Shown: in pieces, positions 16,944 through 52,457 of the stretch
How positions within the stretch are numbered: position 1 is the stretch's first letter
How the letters are laid out: every line of letters begins with the position of its first letter
Source: Gammaproteobacteria bacterium
GTDB taxonomy: Bacteria; Pseudomonadota; Gammaproteobacteria; JBCCGL01
Reading direction: 5' to 3'
DNA length: 64,000 nt
Assembly: GCA_965277715.1 (NCBI GenBank)
Contig: OZ255836.1
Span: forward strand, 3,360,001-3,424,000
Program-made: the position numbers and the translations under genes
Notes under the pieces: model-generated
Database searches by the model: none
What the model was told of the DNA's origin: nothing
Seen by the model: the letters and a program-made list of their open reading frames with translations, nothing else

Positions 16944-17903
16944 GGGGTCAGGCCAGTTATTCACTATTCAATTGACTTTCAATCTGGTACATCATCTCAT
17001 AGAACTCTCCGGTGTCTAACTGCTTCCTAATATAGGCTATTGCGCTCGATACACCACCAGGATGACTTAGACCGAAAATAGTGAGTAATCGCTTTTAGTG
17101 ACATACCGCTAAACCGCTGGCAGTAATACATCGCCAGTTTACGGGGGATGTTCACACTGCCTCCCTTGCCTTGACTGAACAAAATACTGCTTTCGCTCAC
17201 CCAGCAACAACTTGCCACAGTGATTACTATCAAGTGGCTGGCCAACTTTTCCCGCAACTGTGGCCGCACATCAAGGCCACTCTGGCTTTCTTTGTGTTCG
17301 GCCAAGCATAAGCGAAAAGCTTTGTTGTCTAACACAGTCGAGACGTTATTTTTGCCGTAAAATCGTTGTATATCCTCATCAACCCCTTGATCTACATAAT
17401 CTACGCAGCGTTGATAGCTGTTTCGCGCCGGTAAACAGGCATAAACGTGATTGCGGCATAACCAAGTGAGGCTCGATGCCTTTCCTATATAAGCGGGGTA
17501 ACGAGACCAGGGATAGCTCTCTAGCGATTGAACCAGTGGCCGTTTGGTTTCAAGGGTTTCTATGAATATAGCGAGACAGTGGCAATAGATAGGCGTCTTC
17601 ATCGACATTCAGGGCCTTAAACCGTCCTCTAAACTAGGAGCCATCGGTTTTTTTAAGACGGTTATAACGCTGTGTATAAACTCCATCGACATGCTGTATG
17701 ATGCGACTGAGGTTAACATCCGGTGTTTCCAGCAGTAGGTGGTAGTGGTTGCCCGTTAGGCAGTAAACTTCGCCATGAAAAATCGCCTTATGCTCCCGAC
17801 AACGGTTCATTATGTGGTAGAAGGCGTTTTCGTATTCTATGCGCTGAGGCCTTGGCATTGGTTGGTATTGGTACAGCCTATACTAAATAACTAGCCTGAC
17901 CCC
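16944..17903 (-). mobile_element. TIR-flanked Y1/HUH (RAYT-like) transposase element, gene decayed
   Basis: 18-bp TIR GGGGTCAGGCCAGTTATT / AATAACTAGCCTGACCCC; MPRPQRIEY..YHIMNR..NHYHLL, nonsense at DGS*FRGRFKA; C-terminal HTH-like part 17027-17608. Confidence 0.85.
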
Positions 17904-17910
17904 CTTTTTT

Positions 17911-17977
17911 TGAACGCTAAAAAATGAATGAACGATTAAAAAATTGTTGAATTTAACTGCGGGTCCATATATGACCC
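17911..17977 (+). mobile_element. orphan right end of the IS110/IS1111 element
   Basis: 17911-17978 matches 49515-49582 at 67/68 positions. Confidence 0.75.
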
Positions 17978-19537
17978 CAATGGCACTAAGTTAAGCGGTT
18001 TTAGCGGGTAAAATAAACGAAAAAATAACTGTAATAAACCCAATAAAAAAGGCTGAAATGTTATAATTTTGTATGAAAAATACAACCTTATTTCTACCCG
18101 GATTCAACATCCAAACACTCCGCAAAACACCCCGTTCAGCCATTCAAATCTTGCACGATAAGATAGCAAAAATACGTCACAAATCACTGAGTGAACTACC
18201 TGTTTTTCTTGGCGATATTATACCCACGAATATTCTTAAACCGAATGATTTTGGTGTGAATAGTCGTCGACGTATTTTCAGTAAAGAAAATACTTTCTGG
18301 TTGTTTTTTTCACAAATAATGAACGCCGATGGTGGCTGTAAAGAAGTCGTTAGACAACTGCAAAATGTCGCCCACAACCAAGGCATTCCCATACCTTCAT
18401 CATCCACCTCCGCCTATTGCCAAGCACGTAAAAAACTACCCATGGACGATCTTAAAAACGTATTTTCAGGGACGTGTCGATTATCGCCACCTCAACCCAA
18501 AGCGCTCCAAGGTCGACCGGTTATCGTTGCCGATGGGACAGGCCTATCCATGCCCGATACGCCCGCGAATCAACAAACTTACCCACAACCGAAATCACAA
18601 AAACAGGGATGCGGATTTCCTCAAGCACGGCTTTTAGCTTGTTTTAATCTTTATAGCGGTTTAATTCTGAGCTATGCACTAGGAAATAAAAAAAGTCATG
18701 AGCTAAGACTTTTAGAAGAACAATGGGATACCTTCAATGAAGGTGACATTTTCTTAGGTGATAAAGGTTTTTGCAGCTTCTACGATATTGACTGCCTCTC
18801 TCGACGAACGGTTGACAGTGTCGTTACATTGGCGCGGAGAACGCCCAGCACTGCCTCCCAGGCCAAAAAGAAGATAGCCGATAATGACCTTCATATTGAA
18901 TGGCAAAAACCTAAACACACAAAAGCGACCCGTTACACAAAAGAGCAGCATAGCGACCTTCCAAAGACCTTAACTTTACGACAAATACACGTCAGTATTG
19001 TACGAAAAGGATTTAGGACGAACCATTTTTATATCATCACGACACTACTTGATGCTCAGCAATATCCCGCTATAGAAATTATCGACCTCTATGCACAGCG
19101 CTGGAATGTGGAACTGTATTTTCGCAATATTAAAACCACCATGGGTATGGATATATTACGCTGTAAAACACCTGATATGGTTCGTAAGGAAATCATCATG
19201 CACATGATTGTTTACAACACGATCAGGCACATCATGTGTGTCGCTTCATACCGACATGACACACCGGTTGATCGGCTAAGTCTTAAAGGTGTTTTGCAAA
19301 CACTCCGACAAAGCACTTCATCACTTGGTAGTGGGCAGAGTCCAGCACAAAAAAGACGGCAATATCTTGATTATTTATATGCAGCGATTGCGGATGATCG
19401 TGTGCTTCATCGACCTTTTAGATTTGAACCAAGAGTGGTAAAAAGGCGACCTAAACCACGGGCATTAATGACTCGACCAAGGAACGTTTTAAAAACTGAA
19501 TATTGGCAAGCTAAAGCGGCTTAACTTAGTGCCATTG
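17978..19537 (+). mobile_element. complete IS4-family element (IS4-a)
   Basis: 19-bp perfect IR CAATGGCACTAAGTTAAGC; 11-bp TSD ATATATGACCC (17967-17977, 19538-19548). Confidence 0.92.
18073..19524 (+). CDS. IS4-family DDE transposase
   Basis: VADGT, LGDKGF, YAQRWNVELYFRNIK (YREK motif), EPRVVKRRPK. Confidence 0.93.
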   Translation: MKNTTLFLPGFNIQTLRKTPRSAIQILHDKIAKIRHKSLSELPVFLGDIIPTNILKPNDFGVNSRRRIFSKENTFWLFFSQIMNADGGCKEVVRQLQNVAHNQGIPIPSSSTSAYCQARKKLPMDDLKNVFSGTCRLSPPQPKALQGRPVIVADGTGLSMPDTPANQQTYPQPKSQKQGCGFPQARLLACFNLYSGLILSYALGNKKSHELRLLEEQWDTFNEGDIFLGDKGFCSFYDIDCLSRRTVDSVVTLARRTPSTASQAKKKIADNDLHIEWQKPKHTKATRYTKEQHSDLPKTLTLRQIHVSIVRKGFRTNHFYIITTLLDAQQYPAIEIIDLYAQRWNVELYFRNIKTTMGMDILRCKTPDMVRKEIIMHMIVYNTIRHIMCVASYRHDTPVDRLSLKGVLQTLRQSTSSLGSGQSPAQKRRQYLDYLYAAIADDRVLHRPFRFEPRVVKRRPKPRALMTRPRNVLKTEYWQAKAA

Positions 19538-19557
19538 ATATATGACCCCCTTTTTTT

Positions 19558-21016: not shown

Positions 21017-21976
21017 GGGGTCAGGCCAGTTATTCACTGTTCAATTGACTTTCAATCTGGTACATCATCTCATAGAACTCTCCGGTGTCTAACTGCTTTC
21101 TGATATAGGCTATTGCGCTCGATACACCACCAGGATGACTTAGACCGAAAATAGTGAGTAATCGCTTTTAGTGACATACCGCTAAACCGCTGACAGTAAT
21201 ACATCGCCAGTTTACAGGGAATGTTCACACTGTCTCCCTTGCCTTGGCTGAACAAAATACTGCTTTCGCTCACCCGGCAACAACTTGCCACAGTGCTTAC
21301 TATCAAGTGGCTGGCCAACTTTTCCCGCAACTGTGGGTGCACATCAAGGCCACTCTGGCTTTCTTTGTGTTCGGCCAAGCATAAGCGAAAAACTTTGTTG
21401 TCTAACACAGTCGAGACGTTATTTTTGCCGTAAAATCGTTGTATATCCTCATCAACCCCTTGATCTACATAATCTACGCAGCGTTGATAGCTGTTTCGCG
21501 CCGGTAAACAGGCATAAACGTGATTGCGGCATAACCAAGTGAGACTCGATGCCTTTCCTATATAAGCGGGGTAACGAGACCAGGGATAGCTCTCTAGCGA
21601 TTGAACCAGTGGCCGTTTGGTTTCAAGGGTTTCTATGAATATAGCGAGACAGTGGCAATAGATAGGCGTCTTCATCGACATTCAGGGCCTTAAGCCGTCC
21701 TCTAAACTAGGAGCCATCGGTTTTTTTAAGACGGTTATAACGCTGTGTATAAAGTCCATCGACATGCTGCATGATGCGACTGAGGTTAACATCCGGTGTT
21801 TCCAGCAGTAGGTGGTGGTGGTTGCCCGTTAGGCAGTAAACTTCGCCATGAAAAATCGCCTTACGCTCCCGACCACGGTTCATTATGTGGTAGAAGGCGT
21901 TTTCGTATTCTATGCGCTGAGGCCTTGGCATCGGTTGGTATTGGTACAGTCTATACTAAATAACTAGCCTGACCCC
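21017..21976 (-). mobile_element. second 960-bp copy of the Y1 TIR element, decayed
   Basis: Colinear with 16944-17903 (offset 4073); same TIRs, deletion and nonsense codon. Confidence 0.87.
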
Positions 21977-22746: not shown

Positions 22747-23493
22747 GGGGTCAGGCCAGAATGGCACTTCTTTAAGCTGTAAGTATTTGAAAGTATTGGT
22801 ATTACGTGCTTGGTTCAGATAACTTGGCATATGGTTCTTGAAAGCAATATTTGTAAAACTATCCCGGTTATCATTGGCGGCAACTTTCAAAATATCATTT
22901 TTGTTTCTTAGAAAGAATAAATAAACTCTTTACTATCAGTTGCTTACGCCTTAAGGAAGTGCCATTCGGGTCAGGCCAGTTATTCACTGTTCAATTGACT
23001 TTCAATCTGGTACATCATCTCATAGAACTCTCCGGTGTCTAACTGCTTCCTGATATAGGCTATTGCGCTCAATACACCACCAGGATGACTTAGACCGAAA
23101 ATAGTGAGTAATCGCTTTTAGTGACATACCGCTAAACCGCTGGCAGTAATACATCGCCAGTTTACGGGGAATGTTCACACTGCCTCCCTTGCCTTGACTG
23201 AACAAAATACTGCTTTCGCTCACCCGGCAACAACTTGCCACAGTGCTTATTATCAAGTGGCTGGCCAACTTTTCCCGCAACTGTGGGCGCACATCAAGGC
23301 CACTCCGGAAGCGATCTGCAGCTTCGGCCAATGTAGTGAGAAACGCTTGGTAGTAAGCTTCGCCATGAAAAATCGCCTTACGCTCCCGACAACGGTTGGT
23401 TATGTGGTAGAAGGCGTTTTCGTATTCTATGCGCTGAGGCCTTGGCATCGGTTGATATCGACACAATCTATACTAAATAACTAGCCTGCCCCC
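22747..23493 (-). mobile_element. internally deleted Y1 TIR element with the MITE in its left TIR
   Basis: ORF 23020-23466 fuses N-terminus to C-terminal part; right TIR variant AATAACTAGCCTGCCCCC. Confidence 0.82.
22759..22967. mobile_element. 209-bp MITE with IS4-b-type ends
   Basis: IR GAATGGCACTTCTTTAAG / CTTAAGGAAGTGCCATTC; 11-bp TSD GGGTCAGGCCA (22748-22758, 22968-22978). Confidence 0.88.
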
Positions 23494-45325: not shown

Positions 45326-45335
45326 CTACCTTAAA

Positions 45336-46117
45336 GGGGTCAGTACCCTTTATTTATTATCTTGTTTAATATAGGGCCTCCCTCTCTTCGAATGCCCCAC
45401 TTTCAGACTTAAAAGGCTCTCTATCTCATGCTTAAACCGATCACTGCCCAGGGGAACACCTGTTTGAGTACATTGACGAATTTTCTCAACTAGGCTCTCA
45501 TCCATCACTTCCGTAAAGAGAGACCTGTAAGCCAGCTGCCTCTCTGCTTTTTTATTGTCTAACGCCAAGTAGAGAGGGTGAGGAGTGACCAGTGGATCAT
45601 CATGCCCGAGTCCATTGGCATGATAACTTGACCATCGGTAATCCTGGCAGCGCTCGACCATTAGTGCTCTAACCGGGTTCGTTTCTATATATCGACAGCA
45701 AGCCAATAAATACGGCTCTGTATCAACACTACTGGCCTTAAAACGCCCTTCCCACAAAGTGCCACTCCTCCCATATTTATGATTAAAGTAGGGGACATAA
45801 CGCCGCCCCACTGTCTGAGATAGTTTCGATAAGTGGCTGGTATCACTCGCACTCACCAACAAGTGCAAATGATTCGACATTAAGACATAGCTATGAATTC
45901 GGCACGCTAGCTGTTCTGCCGCCTCCTGTAGCCAGCGCTTATAGATAAAGAAATCCTCATCTTCAGCAAAGACGACCTGGCGACTGTTCCCTCTAAGGAT
46001 CATATGGATTGGTACATCGGGGATAAAAAAGCGCGGTTTTCTTGGCATTGTGTTGAGGCTTCAAGAGCGAATGAAAACAGAATTTTATACAAAAATCCTA
46101 TAAAAGGGTACGACCCC
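45336..46117 (-). mobile_element. TIR-flanked Y1/HUH element with intact gene
   Basis: Ends GGGGTCAGTACCCTTTA and TAAAAGGGTACGACCCC. Confidence 0.8.
45350..46048 (-). CDS. Y1/HUH (RAYT-like) tyrosine transposase
   Basis: MPRKPR..HMILRGN, YVLMSNHLHLL (HUH), LWEGRFK, RYIETNPVRA, YRWSSY. Confidence 0.92.
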   Translation of the reverse strand: MPRKPRFFIPDVPIHMILRGNSRQVVFAEDEDFFIYKRWLQEAAEQLACRIHSYVLMSNHLHLLVSASDTSHLSKLSQTVGRRYVPYFNHKYGRSGTLWEGRFKASSVDTEPYLLACCRYIETNPVRALMVERCQDYRWSSYHANGLGHDDPLVTPHPLYLALDNKKAERQLAYRSLFTEVMDESLVEKIRQCTQTGVPLGSDRFKHEIESLLSLKVGHSKRGRPYIKQDNK

Positions 46118-46126
46118 TTTATTTTT

Positions 46127-46941: not shown

Positions 46942-48417
46942 TTACGGCCTGGTGTCACAGCCACCACACCACGCCCCACTGTAGGCGTTGGGCGCATTAC
47001 CAAATCGGGTACCGCCGAAGTAAGACTTTGGGATCCCATAATCATGAAATACATCGTGATGGTAGTCGGAAATCTGTTTCGGACTCAGTAAGTGGTTGAC
47101 GCTTGTTCTATCTTTCGTAACAAAGTTAATGTGGGCCTCCACAAGCTTGAGACCTATTTGCTCCATCGTCACCGTTAAGCCATTATCACTGATATAGGAC
47201 TCCAATCGGCTCCAGGTATAGCTTGCCGAAGCTCGCTCCCACCAACTGGCATCGACAAAGTCGCCATATCCCCAACCTATCAGTGCAGTACGCGCGACCG
47301 GATCACTGCTGTCAGAATACCGGGACTTCCAAAAACCAATAATGTCGCCGTCTTCAGCCAGCGTTTTTTGTGCGTCCGTTATAGGTGAACCTCCCTTCCC
47401 AGCACCCGACTCCGCATTATGCCAATGAGTAAACGCTGCACTAGCCGCCCCATTTGCAAACTTCCCCCCCACCAAGCTTAGATGCCGTCCCCCCAATCAC
47501 CGCAGCAGTAACCGTCCGATGAATTTTATAATTAGCGGACTTCCCCCAAATATCAAAATTCAACGACTTTGCCCCTGCAGCAAAGGCCGACGAAACAAAC
47601 CCATAACCAAACTTTCCGCCTTGCGCAACCGCCAAAGTACCACCAACCACACCATTAGCAGCCGCGTTCAAGGCATGCTGACCTGCACCAGCATTAATGT
47701 CAAAGGTTGAACCAACCCAACTACTGGCTCGTTGCCCAAGATAATACGTTACCCCCGCTACAGCGGCACCTCTAGCGGCTTCCGAGGGCGAAGCCCCATA
47801 CGCTCTGGCTATGTCGTATTGCGCCGCCGCATAACACAGCGCCGCAAAAGGGCCACAAAATGCTGAGCCAATGGTCGCCGCGAGATTGGCAATTTTTGGA
47901 CCTACAGCCCGAATAACGGCTCTTGTAGCTTTCTTCACAAGTCGCTGCAAAGCCGCCGCCGGCCCTAATACAAGACCCGCAAGTCCCCCGATTGCTTTTT
48001 TAAGCAATCCCTTTAAAAAATACCCACTAGGATCCGTATACTTCATCGGATTATTCTGCACATAGCTATAGCGACTATAGCTCTGGCTCATGCCCGTCAA
48101 TCGATTCGTGGTCGGTATAAGCTCGGGTGGTAAACAGTAAACGCATGCTGTACAGCGACCCCGCACCTTGCCAGTCAAAATGGCGTTGTTTGCCCCAGGC
48201 ATCGTAACTGCGCCGATCAACCACTTGACCGTCAGCATCCGTCATCGTGTCGATACTGCCGAGCGCGTCTTTGTGCAGATAGTGGGTTTTAACACCTTCC
48301 TTGCTGGAAACACTGTGGCTGGCGACCCGATTGCCCGCAGCGTAGATGTAGTGTTGATGCCGGGTGTGTTGACCGTTGTCAGTGACCTGTTTCTCGTACA
48401 ATCCCCCTACGTACCAG
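46942..48417 (-). pseudogene. Rhs toxin C-terminal remnant (core end, hydrophobic linker, tip)
   Basis: YLHKDALGSI..RSYDAWG and YSYVQNNPMKYTDPSG; split over ORFs 48075-48401, 47441-48238, 46942-47496. Confidence 0.85.
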
Positions 48418-49284
48418 GAAGCGTATGCGACGTCCAGTTATTGGTCGCAGGTTTTCACACGCTACGGCCATACCGTCAAACTCATTAATCCAGCATACGT
48501 ACGCCCTTACGTTAAAACAAACAAGAACGATGCAGCGGATGTAGAGGCCCTGTGTGAAGCAGCCTCACGTCCGAATATGCGATTTGTTCAGCCCAAAACA
48601 CCCGACCAACAAGACAGCCAATTACTCCACCGGGTGCGCAGTCGGTTAGTGTCAAAACGGACGAGTTTAAGTAATCAAATAAGAGGGTTACTGGGTGAGT
48701 ATGGGCTGATTATTCCGGTAGGTATTCGCCACGTCCGCCAGCACTTGCCTGCGCTTTTAGAGGATGCTGAAAATGCCTTGTCAGCCACAGCACGTGAAGT
48801 GTTCAGTGCTTTGTATGATGAACTAGTGGAGATTGATAAACGCGTAACACACTACACAAAACGGTTAACCCAGTTGAGCAACCAGCATGAGCGCTGTCAG
48901 CAATTAAAAACACTGCCGGGTGTAGGGCCTCTGGTCGCCACTGCCTTGTTTACAGCAATGGGCGATCCGGGTTTCTATAAAAACGGGCGTGAGTTTTCCG
49001 CCTTTTTGGGTCTCGTTCCTCGTCAATATAGTTCGGGGGGCAAAACACAACTCAAAGGTATCAGTAAACGCGGGGACGAACACGTGCGCACTTTGTTGAT
49101 ACAGGGGGCGCAAGCGGCATTAAGTCGAATGCCTAAACACGATGATGGGCTAAGTCGTTGGGCCTGTCGTGTCAAAGCACGTCGGGGCCATTGTGTGGCG
49201 GCGGTGGCATTGGCCAATAAGCTCGCCAGAATTAGCTGGGCGGTAGCGGCTAATAATACAACTTACGTGCATAAAACAGTTTAA
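48418..49284 (+). pseudogene. IS110-family (IS1111-type) recombinase, 5'-truncated
   Basis: EAYATS, KNDAAD, LPGVG, LGLVPRQYSSGG, ISKRGD, VALANKLARI; first catalytic Asp segment missing. Confidence 0.88.
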
Positions 49285-49338
49285 TAACATCGTTGAAGAT
49301 TTCTTACCACGAGGTAGCGAAAGAGCAGTAAAGGGTAT

Positions 49339-49492
49339 AACAGGTTAAACCGGCTCAGACAGAACCTGGAGGGGGTCATGGTCTTCACAGACCGATTGCT
49401 TGATGAGGTGTCTGAGCACGGTTCCCATTATGGCTCTGGACGGATAAACAAATACAATCCGTCCTATCGAGAAGCCGGATATATGACTGCTA
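49339..49492 (+). ncRNA. putative IS1111 seek/bridge RNA
   Basis: Non-coding region after the transposase; stems CTCAGACA/TGTCTGAG, GGTC/GACC, GGACGGAT/ATCCGTCC; loops match target and donor ends. Confidence 0.68.
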
Positions 49493-49707
49493 ACCTTATT
49501 TACTGTGTCTGCTCTGAACGCTAAAAATTGAATGAACGATTAAAAAATTGTTGAATTTAACTGCGGGTCCATATATGACCCCTTAACTTTGGGCGCTATT
49601 TCCAATTTCTCGGGATATCCTTGTATATTTCTATATAATGCCTGTCCTATTTTCCTTCTTGATAAATAGTTTGGGAATTTATACGGCCAGAAAGTGGCAC
49701 ATTACAA

Positions 49708-50322
49708 TTATGGATGATCTCTATCTATTTTCTGTTGCCGCCCAATGGATAAAGATTTATTCATCTCATACCTAGACAGCAGCAGAATTTTAGCCCTTTC
49801 ATATTTATCACGGTTATACGTAGGAGAATTTAAGTGAGGGGCTCTTCCTATAGTTAATAACGCTATTACTTTTTCTACATTTAACTCTCTCAAATCCAAA
49901 CCATAATAATGACTAGATGCATTGGAAAGACCCCGACCTTCTTCATATGGCAAATAGTAACCATATAACGATAAAATTTTATCATCCGATAAGCTGACAA
50001 GCATAGCAAAGCGAACAAGCCAAAATTTTATGGGCCAACTACTAATTTTTTTCTGCTCGCTATTGTAATACCTCATCCCTACTACTTTAGCTACATAGGT
50101 CTTGACACTGTTAGGTAAAATACCTGCATCCTTATTTGATCTTTCTACCCATATAATTGTTTGCTTTATTTCATTCGTTAGCGCTTTCTCGGACTCAGAT
50201 AAATTCTGATACTCATTTTGAATAAATTCATTAATTCCACTTAGGTATACATAGCATATACAAAATATGAAAATTACGAAGCCTACTAAAACAAAAGAAG
50301 TTCTTCTGCACACTAAACTCAT
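49708..50322 (-). CDS. membrane-anchored transglycosylase-domain-like protein, probable immunity
   Basis: N-terminal TM; GLSNASSHYYG..RELNVEKVIALLTIGRAPHLNSP resembles the GT51 C-terminal half; AT-rich; directly after a toxin-tip-like ORF. Confidence 0.6.
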   Translation of the reverse strand: MSLVCRRTSFVLVGFVIFIFCICYVYLSGINEFIQNEYQNLSESEKALTNEIKQTIIWVERSNKDAGILPNSVKTYVAKVVGMRYYNSEQKKISSWPIKFWLVRFAMLVSLSDDKILSLYGYYLPYEEGRGLSNASSHYYGLDLRELNVEKVIALLTIGRAPHLNSPTYNRDKYERAKILLLSRYEMNKSLSIGRQQKIDRDHP

Positions 50323-50327
50323 TTCAA

Positions 50328-50784
50328 TTACCTAAGTCGTTCATTCACAGCATCTAGTAGTCGACGTGGTGTTACTATACTGGTGAAAGAAATACTGGAT
50401 TGTTGGTTAATTCCATTGAATGCTGGAATAGTTTCTATTGCATTTGTAATAGTACATGCACAATACAGTGGACTACGCCATCCTAATCTATCAATTGTCG
50501 TCAATAAATCTGTCACGTCGGCTGGTGAAATATTCAAATCTCTAATAACAACTGTTGAACCTGTTCCATGATGATAAGTTATATAATCTTGAACACTTAC
50601 ATTATATAAAACGTCTCCAGATCCTCTTGTCCCTGTTTGGAAACTTCCACCTGGATCATATAAAAAGCTCTCTCCATTCTGCTGAATCAATAAAGCTGAA
50701 TGCATATCAGCCAAACCCTCATCTAAAACGCTTACTAGCTTTGCAGTACTCTTTTCCGCCTTCTGTGCAGCAAGCTCTTGTTCA
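50328..50784 (-). pseudogene. 5'-truncated toxin-tip-like ORF
   Basis: HSAL..LYDPGGSF..RGSGD..LYCA; cut by the IS3 end; AT-rich. Confidence 0.5.
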
Positions 50785-50792
50785 ACGGTGTT

Positions 50793-52457
50793 TGTCAAGG
50801 TAGTTGTCCGTTTTACTATGCTACTTGCTTTTCAATTCCATTGTGCTTTTGTCTCATGGCCAAGCCTTCCTTTTCCGGGTTTAACCACACCCCCGATACC
50901 GGTTCGAGGTGTTTAATATCCTGGCTCCAGCGTTCAGGGTGTTTGGCCTTTGCTTGTTCATAAACTGCTTTTCTGGCTGCCAGTATCGCGTGATCTTCGC
51001 CTTTATGACGCGAGGCTGGTGTCACAAACCCAATGCCGCTATGGCAATGAGAGCCGTTGTACCATTGCACAAATCCATGCACCCAGTTTCGCGCAGAGGC
51101 TAAACTATCAAATGGCTTTGACGGATAGGCAGGCGTGTATTTTAAGGTTCTAAACAGACTTTCTGAATAAGGATTATCATCGCTTACCGATGGCCTACTA
51201 AACGAAGGTATCACACCCAACCATTGCAGTTTTGCTAACATGGTAGCACCTTTCATCGGGCCACCATTATCCGCGTGTAATACCAATTGACTCTGGCTGC
51301 ACCCCTCCGCTAAACAGGCACGCTGGATCAGCGCCGCTGCCAGATCAGCCGATTCACTGTCATGCACTTCCCAGGCAACAATTTTACGACTGTAAATATC
51401 CATCATCATGTAAAGCCGGTAAAACCACCCGGTTATGTTCGATTTCAAAAAGGTAATATCCCAAGACCACACCTCGTTTGGCCTTGATGCCAGGTAGCTG
51501 TTAGGTTTGTGCCGTTTTTTAGGCGTCGCCGCCTTACCTTGCCGCTGCAGTTGGTTTTCCGACTTTAACACCCGATAGAAGCTTGACTCTGACCCAATAT
51601 ACACACCTTCATCCGCCAATTTGGGCACAATTTGCGAGGGGGGTAGCGCTTGGTAGTTCGCTTCATTACAGGTGGTGACAATCAATGCCCGCTCTTCTGC
51701 TGTGAACTTATTACCAGGCGCCTGTCGATGAGCGCTGGGTCTGCCATCAGCACGGACAGTACCCGCGTTTGCCCAGCGTCGGTACGTCTTAGGGTGTCAC
51801 TCAAGCACTTTGCACGCTTTGCTTAATGTAGCGCCAGCGACAACGGCCTCTTTGATTAAACGGATACTATTTTGGCGATCTGAATGGCAGGTCATTCGTC
51901 CTCTCCCTCCCCCCAGATCGCTTGGGCCTTTTTTCTAAGCACCAGCAAAGCGGCTGTTTCGGCTAACGCTTTCTCCTTTCGGTGCAGGTCTTGTTCGAGA
52001 CGTTTAATACGTTTATCCGCTTCTCTACGACTGGTTTGTAAACGTTTCGTTTGGGCGCGATCCCAGTCATTGGCTTGTTCACAAGCCATTCGCCATGCCT
52101 TAATCTGATCAGGGTACAAACCACGATGACGGCAATAAGCTGAAAGGTCTGTTTCGCTTAATGACGCACTTTCCAGAACCGCTGAAAACTTATCCGAAGA
52201 ACCCCAACCTGCTGGTGTCAAATCGCCATCTGGCATGAGTTCGCCTTTCGCTCTTGCTGGGGCTCGCCAACTATAAAGCGTACCTTGTGCAATGCCTTCT
52301 TCTTTGGCTAACCGGGAAATTGTCTGATTGTTCGGCGGCAGCATCTTCTTTAAAACAGCGGCCTTTCTTTCTATTGGATAACGCATACCACTCTCTCTTT
52401 GCCTCCTGTAATAACTTATTGAATCCCAATTTAGGGAGGGGGACAACTACCCTGACA
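50793..52457 (-). mobile_element. IS3-family element, orfB inactivated
   Basis: IR TGTCAAGGTAGTTGTCC / GGACAACTACCCTGACA; orfA 51892-52386; orfB 50816-51895 (WSWDIT, HADNG, YSESLFRTLK) with in-frame TGA at 51797-51799. Confidence 0.88.

Follow-up and report, generated by a model that had tools for sequence, protein, structure and literature searches.

What places an insertion sequence (IS) of the IS1111 type directly before a short motif that also occurs at the ends of Y1 (HUH) elements, and could an RNA encoded by the IS have chosen that site? The question is raised by a stretch of 64,000 nucleotides (nt) of contig OZ255836.1 (positions 3,360,001–3,424,000; Gammaproteobacteria bacterium, assembly GCA_965277715.1), which we call the window, in which a truncated IS occupies positions 48417–49575 and is followed immediately by TGACCCC. 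A sequence-only reading of this DNA had described the IS as an RNA-guided parasite of HUH-element ends, and all of the motifs on which it relied were recovered at their positions in the window sequence. Taken as a whole, the locus is probably best explained as a truncated, RNA-guided IS1111 element that homed on the ends of Y1 elements and on their satellites, which resemble repetitive extragenic palindromes (REPs).

The truncated element and its ends

The open reading frame (ORF) called at 48376–49284 on the + strand contains a 5′-truncated transposase gene (48417–49284, stop codon at 49284) that profile matches place in the IS1111 group of the IS110 family. Pfam PF02371 matches with 82.3 bits and PF01548 with 43.2 bits, the latter from profile position 54 and so over its last two thirds; the NCBIfam model transpos_IS110 matches with 295.6 bits (cut-off 140) at positions 55–342 of 343, and NCBIfam labels the ORF an IS110 family RNA-guided transposase. 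Transposases annotated as IS4321 or IS5075 family share 43% identity with the protein, aligned over 99% of the query. Pfam, NCBIfam and this identity agree on a DEDD (RuvC-like) N-terminal domain joined to a PF02371 C-terminal domain, and they bear out the IS1111-type assignment of the sequence-only reading. The catalytic domain is incomplete, since the profile matches start only at position 54/55: about 54 N-terminal residues are missing from the window copy, as are the left inverted repeat and the left end. Because these parts are missing the copy cannot move alone; it is a defective, dead relic.

Between the stop codon at 49284 and the end of the IS lie 291 nt (49285–49575) that comprise the 3′ non-coding region and the right end and align with their counterpart in 63 relatives; a longer non-coding region downstream of the transposase gene (tnp) is characteristic of IS1111-type elements (PMC11187229, section 6). 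The right subterminal inverted repeat GCGGGTCCAT with the 3-nt extension ATA (49563–49575) makes up the right end, which reads GCGGGTCCATATA and then TGACCCC. Next to it, outside the IS, lies the putative right target half TGACCCCT (49576–49583), delimited by repeated uninterrupted targets of sister elements and by the divergence of public contigs.

Species genomes were scanned and yielded 511 relatives; the analysis used the best 80. Among these the closest are 61–70% identical to the window element, and nothing closer was found elsewhere, neither in metagenome contigs (at most 56% identity) nor on plasmids (below 60%). Both ends could be placed in 63 of the 80 loci (one spurious row, L025, being excluded). 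These 63 relatives are 1.34–1.52 kb long and carry a 7-nt left extension (T/C)(A/G)ATG(G/A)N, a left repeat ATGGNC..., a right repeat ...GNCCAT and a 3-nt right extension (ATA, GTA, CTA or ACA). This is the anatomy given for IS1111 elements where PMC11187229 describes their ends, with subterminal repeats of 11–13 bp, 7 bp beyond the left one and 3 bp beyond the right one. In the closest relatives with ends (L001–L004) the left end is TGATGGG followed by ATG(G/A)ACCCGC, and the left inverted repeat ATGGACCCGC that had been predicted for the window element is indeed found in the closest relative with ends. The right side of the window element fits the same pattern; its left side is deleted in both window copies.

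The left boundary at 48418 is no artefact: at 48417/48418, contigs of four public sequencing runs depart from the window sequence, in both directions, and those of runs X1, X4 and X6 extend the transposase frame upstream of 48417, a 566-nt record of X4 by 263 nt; therefore full-length copies exist elsewhere. In the window the transposase frame is fused at this point to an RHS-like gene. The RHS-like gene fragment (48075–48417, − strand) stops at the junction with the truncated IS, and in all four runs other contigs carry the gene past the junction with no IS, which makes the window a rearranged or deleted version of the locus. The stretch is contained in nine public runs from four studies, five of them labelled sponge metagenome and none recorded as RNA.

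A second and much shorter right-end remnant of the same IS (17911–17971, + strand; about 60 nt) is likewise followed by TGACCCC. The two right-end copies are identical at 65 of 66 positions, flank counted, and the 20-mer GCGGGTCCATATATGACCCC occurs twice in the window, at 17959 and 49563 (0.00 expected from 100 shuffles); both the abutment on TGACCCC and its recurrence, noted before from the letters alone, hold. If an IS4-like insertion is disregarded, direct copies of TGACCCCCTTTTTTT stand on both sides of the 60-nt remnant (17897–17971 and 19543–19557); the first copy is the tip of a complete Y1 element and the second precedes a 100-bp partial Y1 right end. Simple insertion, deletion, insertion of Y1 into the IS and recombination at an internal TGA were each tried as the origin of these flanking direct repeats, and none fits.

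The predicted guide RNA

The 3′ non-coding region of the element encodes a predicted bridge/seek RNA whose fold is conserved in relatives. Folded by itself, the region 49325–49510 reaches −67.4 kcal/mol (z = −4.35; none of 200 shuffles as good). A consensus fold was derived from an alignment of the window sequence with 56 non-identical relatives (57 sequences, 195 columns), and it has 24 pairs, 21 of them with compensatory changes. In this fold 90.6% of the paired cells can pair, against 62.2% after shuffling, and the covariation score is 0.710, against 0.200; none of 500 shuffles scores as high, and sliding the partners by 1–3 columns lowers the score to 0.14 or less.

The predicted RNA has two modules, both on the + strand. 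The target-binding module (49353–49417) is closed by outer helices 49353–49360/49410–49417 and 49365–49367/49406–49408, where the stem motifs CTCAGACA (at 49354) and TGTCTGAG (at 49409) lie, and is divided by an inner hairpin GGTC/GACC (49380–49383/49390–49393; motifs at 49380 and 49390). The downstream stem with inner hairpin that had been folded by eye is thus a conserved structure. Its 5′ loop GGAGGGGGTCAT (49368–49379), which includes GGGGGTCA at 49371, is complementary to the right flank TGACCCCC(TC); its 3′ loop GATTGCTTGATG (49394–49405), which includes GCTTGA at 49398, holds the left guide TTGCT (49396–49400) and then TGA (49401–49403). The donor-binding module has helices within 49432–49476 (49432–49435/49473–49476, and a variable hairpin 49437–49441/49461–49465); its helix 5 is paired in 100% of the cells, with two covarying pairs. 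On one side of these helices stands the 5′ donor segment CCCATTA (49424–49430), complementary to the left-end extension T(A/G)ATGGG, and on the other the 3′ donor segment ATATATGAC (49479–49487), identical to the right-end tip ATATA plus TG(AC); its core ATATATGA is present at 49479 and again at the end junction, 49571.

Whether GGGGGTCA lies in a stem depends on the fold considered. The single-sequence minimum-energy fold pairs part of it weakly with the 3′ loop, and part of GGGGGUCA likewise with the opposite loop; these pairs are absent from the covariation-supported consensus fold, which leaves both target loops unpaired. Weak loop–loop pairing of this kind is to be expected of two halves that read opposite strands of a single site. 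The sole terminator-like site found is the right inverted repeat paired with the target. Right inverted repeat and target together form the inverted repeat GGGTC CATATAT GACCC at 49565–49581, so that the target resembles the element's own repeat.

That the loops are guides is argued by the way they follow the DNA around each element. Fifty-one loci had enough flank to be scored (five with short flanks were dropped), and keeping one per distinct loop pair left 44 lineages, in which matching positions were counted at offsets 0–3 and compared with flanks shuffled among lineages. Of 9 positions, the 5′ loop matches a mean of 7.41 in the right flank of its own element, compared with 3.91 ± 0.19 for shuffled flanks (maximum 4.73), and of 6 positions the 3′ loop matches 4.77 in the left flank, compared with 1.79 ± 0.18 (maximum 2.43); in neither case did any of 2000 shuffles do as well. 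Position by position, the right guide covers flank bases 1–8 (34–42 of 44 lineages matching) and the left guide the last five bases of the left flank (38–43 of 44). At every position the 3′ donor segment agrees with the terminal 5 nt of the right end in 43–44 of the 44 lineages, and it follows that tip through its variants ATATA (24 lineages), ATGTA (10), ATACA (5) and ATCTA (4). For the 5′ donor segment, the lineages matching the left-end extension at positions 1–7 number 32, 7, 44, 44, 44, 43 and 30 of 44.

These relations were repeated in a hold-out set of 80 metagenome loci that had played no part in choosing the alignment columns. Both ends and flanks were present in 49 of them, ungapped guide columns in 47 of those, and 39 new guide pairs remained. 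Here the right flank matches at 7.31 of 9 (shuffled 4.04 ± 0.20) and the left flank at 4.44 of 5 (1.48 ± 0.17), and the 3′ donor segment matches the right-end tip in 38–39 of 39. As a positive control, an annotated IS4321 on an Escherichia coli plasmid, read by eye, obeys the same four-segment rule. The two loops first picked out in the window are thus the target-guide positions, and ATATATGA the donor guide, in 44 plus 39 lineages. One detail of the earlier proposal is not borne out as a general feature: a G–U wobble at the left guide finds little echo in relatives, where only 4 of 19 left-guide mismatches are wobble-compatible.

Read in the family register, the window guides specify the right target TGACCCCC(TC) and, at the left, TTGCT followed by TGA, the two overlapping at TGA; the donor guides specify ATATA plus TG for the right end and T(A/G)ATGGG for the left. 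The window loops stand at offset 1, one of the two common offsets (16 of 44 lineages), and the 5′ guide matches 8 of 9 positions of its own flank TGACCCCT and 9 of 9 of the Y1 right end TGACCCCCT. In the predicted RNA a top-strand match lies 5′ of a bottom-strand match that overlaps it in the target, which is the order given for IS1111 seekRNAs in section 9 of PMC11187229, and its place in the right end agrees with the account in PMC11208160. Across the 44 lineages the sequence of the donor loop reads both IS ends, with the exception of a non-Watson–Crick position 2. On the strength of these sequence comparisons we regard RNA guidance of the element as very probable.

By this reading, intact members of the family would combine a DEDD recombinase with a bridge/seek RNA, having two internal loops, from the region downstream of the gene, and we infer that the RNA is made and used. 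Right of the insertion point, the top strand (TGACCCCC) would be bound by the 5′ half of the target loop (GGAGGGGGUCA), and at the left the bottom strand (TTGCT, then TGA) by the 3′ half (UUGCU plus UGA), the halves overlapping at TGA. In the donor loop, CCCAUUA would pair with the 7-nt left-end extension (TRATGGG) and AUAUAUG(AC) would correspond to the right-end tip, so that both segments together would read the joined ends of an excised circle, the presumed intermediate. Insertion of the circle by the recombinase, between ...TTGCT and TGACCCCC..., would follow and would leave the target unduplicated. Site-specific insertion with no duplication is seen for the sister elements; the window element shows the right half of its site only, and TTGCT is the predicted left half.

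Two side observations concern the guides. At position 2 of the left extension, Watson–Crick pairing with the donor guide is seen in only 7 of the 44 lineages and in 2 of the 39 of the hold-out set (alignment columns 119–125 and 178–186): in most lineages the left end carries A at a place for which every guide segment implies G, and in the window clade it carries G and the RNA implies A, which would make a U–G pair. In addition, the run of five Gs in the 5′ guide (49371) varies in length in sponge metagenome contigs, being one G shorter in run X3 (depth 129 of 618, 7 contigs) and in X6 (4375 of 11856, 4 contigs) and two Gs shorter in X3 (194 of 618, 4 contigs). These variants could fit CCCC or CCC targets, or could be homopolymer error.

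Y1 ends, REP-like repeats and rival explanations

TGACCCC is the putative target and lies outside the IS, as had been supposed, because the IS ends after its 3-nt extension, sister sites are found uninterrupted, copies with no IS occur in the window, and contigs diverge beyond the motif. The sisters L001–L003 and L006 sit in ...AAGCTGGC / TGACCCC..., and the joined site GCTGGCTGACCCC (at most one mismatch) occurs 24 times in one sister genome, G001 (control 2), and 17 times in another, G002 (control 1); at L006 an empty copy of the target lies about 25 nt from the occupied one. In the window there are seven exact, IS-free copies of GCCTGACCCC, each marking an end, either of a Y1-derived element or of an IS4-like insertion within the end of one, and 16 copies with at most one mismatch, where 4.07 ± 2.25 are expected and none of 100 shuffles reaches 16. 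After TGACCC(C)(T)(T), public contigs lead into four flanks other than that of the window. On contig C33 of G001 (64644–64740), four copies of GTTGGCTGACCCC spaced 24–36 nt apart form an array of the REP-like target that resembles a bacterial interspersed mosaic element.

The Y1 elements of the window are of two kinds. Two are decayed, each 960 bp long and on the − strand (16944–17903 and 21017–21976), with the same ends: 24-nt terminal inverted repeats GGGGTCAGGCCAGTTATT... / ...AATAACTAGCCTGACCCC, 88% complementary. The element at 16944–17903 matches Pfam Y1_Tnp with 29.4 bits when its two in-frame stops are read as X, and has a later frameshift; its right end is the window's best match to the predicted target, with two mismatches to the 13-mer. 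Both decayed copies share the in-frame stops (after ...KKTDGS and after ...YIHRNP) and the frameshift, which indicates that copying followed the decay of the gene, as with non-autonomous elements. The third (45332–46121, − strand) has an intact Y1 gene (45350–46048; Y1_Tnp, 51 bits) between inverted REP-like palindromes, AAAGGGGTC(A)GTACCCTTT, which contain GGGGTCA/TGACCCC and whose inverted arms lie at 45332–45353 and 46100–46121. This is the layout of a REP-flanked REP-associated tyrosine transposase (RAYT), and the RAYT model is the best NCBIfam match of both Y1 proteins, with 63.5 bits (intact) and 30.9 bits (decayed), neither of which reaches its cut-off of 80.

Evidence that the family uses such repeats comes from the sisters. 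In a third genome, G003, the sequence ATCAATCGATAC / TGACCCCATTGAT stands on either side of a Y1 gene (locus L170), and this is exactly the site into which the IS of L018, with the left guide GATAC, has inserted; the site that the IS of L006 occupies, CAAGCTGGC / TGACCCCTTGA, is found upstream of a Y1 gene in G002. Of 10 Y1 loci, TGACCCC occurs at most about 140 nt from the Y1 match in five and is absent from the locus in the other five. In the small clade to which the window element belongs, the right guide is fixed on TGACCCC and the left guide varies with the local repeat. With its right-half target forming the core of REP-like palindromes and Y1 terminal repeats, here and in the genomes of relatives, the element family would home on Y1 ends and REP-like satellites, and we think it reasonably likely that these are its natural home. 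The only window sites with at most two mismatches to the predicted 13-mer are three Y1 right ends, a finding qualified by an estimate, made without computation, that about one such site is expected by chance.

Several findings weigh against this interpretation. The window copy is unable to move independently, the left junction is lost in both window copies, and the position of the 17911–17971 remnant between direct copies of TGACCCCCTTTTTTT is left without explanation by a simple insertion. No window site fits the 13-mer with at most one mismatch, and sites with at most three are not enriched in the window (16, 20.2 expected). Between the left guide TTGCT and the window Y1 ends (TAGCC, TGGCC) no more than 3 of 5 positions agree; in relatives, the guide and the element's own left flank agree at all 5 positions in 31 cases, at 4 in 9, at 3 in 3 and at 1 in 1 (n = 44). 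The flank at 49576 (TGACCCCTTAAC) is no Y1 terminal repeat and resembles the REP-like TGACCCCTTTAA. No Y1-like ORF lies within about 1.3 kb of the IS in any of six sister loci (L001–L004, L017 and L018; translations read by eye), and tblastn with the two Y1 proteins of the window against the fetched loci matched L006 only; these two results fit dispersed REP-like repeats, without proving the link. Rfam has no match at E ≤ 1 over 47000–51000, and a promoter scan gave no sigma-70-like site.

The sequence-only reading therefore needs some trimming where the target is concerned. The TGACCCC core is present in Y1 ends, as it held, and the flank of the IS itself is another sequence; the predicted overlap of the two loop matches at TGA stands, and the proposed match of the right loop to the Y1 terminal inverted repeat comes down to three of five bases. 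As for an RNA-guided parasite of HUH-element ends, the mechanism and the seat of sister elements in Y1-flanking REP-like repeats are supported, and the identity of the target partly so.

The most serious rival accepts the guide RNA and places its cognate site in some other TGACCCC repeat, with TTGCT at the left and absent from the window, the Y1 ends being near-cognate look-alikes. It would account for the 3-of-5 fit of the left guide, where 40 of 44 relatives reach at least 4 of 5 at their own site, and for a surviving flank at 49576 that differs from the Y1 terminal repeat, and sisters do keep TGACCCC and adapt the left guide to local repeats (CTGGC, GATAC, AGATT). We nevertheless hold it to be rather unlikely: the sole window sites with up to two mismatches are Y1 right ends, the 17911–17971 remnant is followed, once the IS4-like insertion is removed, by TGACCCCCTTTTTTT, 15 nt identical to the adjacent Y1 right end, and the occupied repeats in G002 and G003 are those that flank Y1 genes.

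A second rival regards TGACCCC as a general hot spot or structured repeat at which the IS landed with no RNA pairing, the link to Y1 being incidental. An unrelated IS4-family element and its short derivative do adjoin the motif, at seven of seven window ends and at one end in G001, yet the loops match flanks in 83 lineages with quite different targets, and a hot spot cannot account for loops that covary with the flanks of each element; the window loops also stand in the family register. This makes the hot spot a very improbable cause. The last rival, that TGACCCC belongs to the IS, whose true end would be ...ATATATGACCCC and whose loop match would be internal complementarity, can be dismissed as scarcely credible even though all copies in the window and the contigs keep at least TGACCC after ATATA and the 3′ donor segment reads ATATATGAC, because the family rule is a 3-nt right extension, the bases after it vary by locus in other lineages and track the loop, and the joined flanks occur uninterrupted many times in sister genomes, as does GCCTGACCCC at seven IS-free places in the window.

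The motif is shared by an IS4-family element at 17979–19536, which matches NCBIfam transpos_IS4_1 with 205.6 bits, and by its derivative at 22768–22958, about 190 bp in length. All seven outward IS4-like ends ...AGTGCCATT in the window, at 19528(+), 17987(−), 44696(−), 22768(−), 22958(+), 20128(+) and 46196(+), have TGACCCC/GGGGTCA or a near copy within 0–6 nt; a further end lies at 2362(−) of locus L166. Their duplications of 11–12 bp (ATATATGACCC, GGGTCAGGCCAG) span the motif in a fixed register. In G001 the same IS4-like end is followed by CATATATGACCCC, so that there too the IS4-like element inserted at an IS1111 right-end junction.

We offer one wider suggestion tentatively, as it is on balance doubtful: in sponge-associated bacteria, the TGACCCC core of a Y1/HUH family may be exploited by two further mobile layers, which would make a nested community of parasites. 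One layer would be the IS1111 clade, with its right guide fixed and its 5-nt left guide rewritten (CTGGC, GATAC, AGATT, TTGCT), the other an IS4-family DDE element inserting at a fixed distance from the core, and all three element types would travel together between symbiont genomes.

Comparison with known systems

The window copy teaches no new mechanism, and its value is that of a clean natural data set. In 83 related lineages the four IS1111 guide segments can be read directly from sequence, and the small clade presents natural retargeting, in which one guide half has changed and the other has stayed fixed on a Y1-associated repeat core. Such data could be used for target prediction in uncharacterized IS1111 elements, and they give a view of how mobile elements are stacked in symbiont genomes. 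How these recombinases distinguish donor from target may be connected with the regular non-Watson–Crick position of the donor guide.

It is established that IS1111 and IS110 elements choose their targets by means of an RNA (PMC11187229; PMC11208160). Natural targets already on record (PMC11187229; PMC12288879) include REPs for ISPa11, IS621, ISPpu10 and ISPpu9, besides the terminal repeats of the Tn21 family (IS4321, IS5075) and attC sites, and REPs are described in PMC2817692 as satellites of Y1 transposases, a Y1 gene between two inverted REPs being the defining layout. With REPs known both as IS110/IS1111 targets and as Y1 satellites, a parasite of HUH ends restates a known relationship. 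A literature search (RAYT with IS110; seekRNA or bridge RNA with IS1111) found no paper on this clade or motif; supplements, which may include them, were outside its scope.

The intact Y1 gene of the window resembles RAYT/REP systems in lying between inverted REP-like palindromes and in its best-matching model. It differs in its sub-cut-off scores, and the 960-bp decayed copies with their 24-nt repeats look more like an IS.

Among REP-targeting elements, IS621, ISPpu10 and ISPpu9 belong to the IS110 group. The bridge RNA of IS621, as PMC11208160 presents it, resembles the predicted window RNA in having target and donor loops that each read both strands around a short core. Unlike the window element, the IS110 group has its RNA upstream of tnp, the guide order reversed and subterminal repeats of only 2–3 bp (PMC11187229; PMC11208160). 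ISPa11 of Pseudomonas aeruginosa, an IS1111 element, comes closer: sections 4, 8 and 9 of PMC11187229 give it the same transposase type, a non-coding region downstream of tnp, a seekRNA with a top-strand match 5′ of an overlapping bottom-strand match, and a REP as target. It differs from the window element in target sequence and host and in being compared here by its published description with a truncated copy whose RNA is predicted.

IS4321 and IS5075 share with the window element 43% transposase identity and the habit of residing in another mobile element's ends. The end anatomy of IS4321, TAATGAG plus ATGGTCAC... / ...GTGACCAT plus AGA, and its four guide segments are those of the window family (one copy, read by eye). 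Their host, in contrast, is a DDE transposon of the Tn3 family with a different target, while that of the window element would be of the Y1/HUH type. The mechanism to which this comparison leads is a known one; the host and the target sequence are new.

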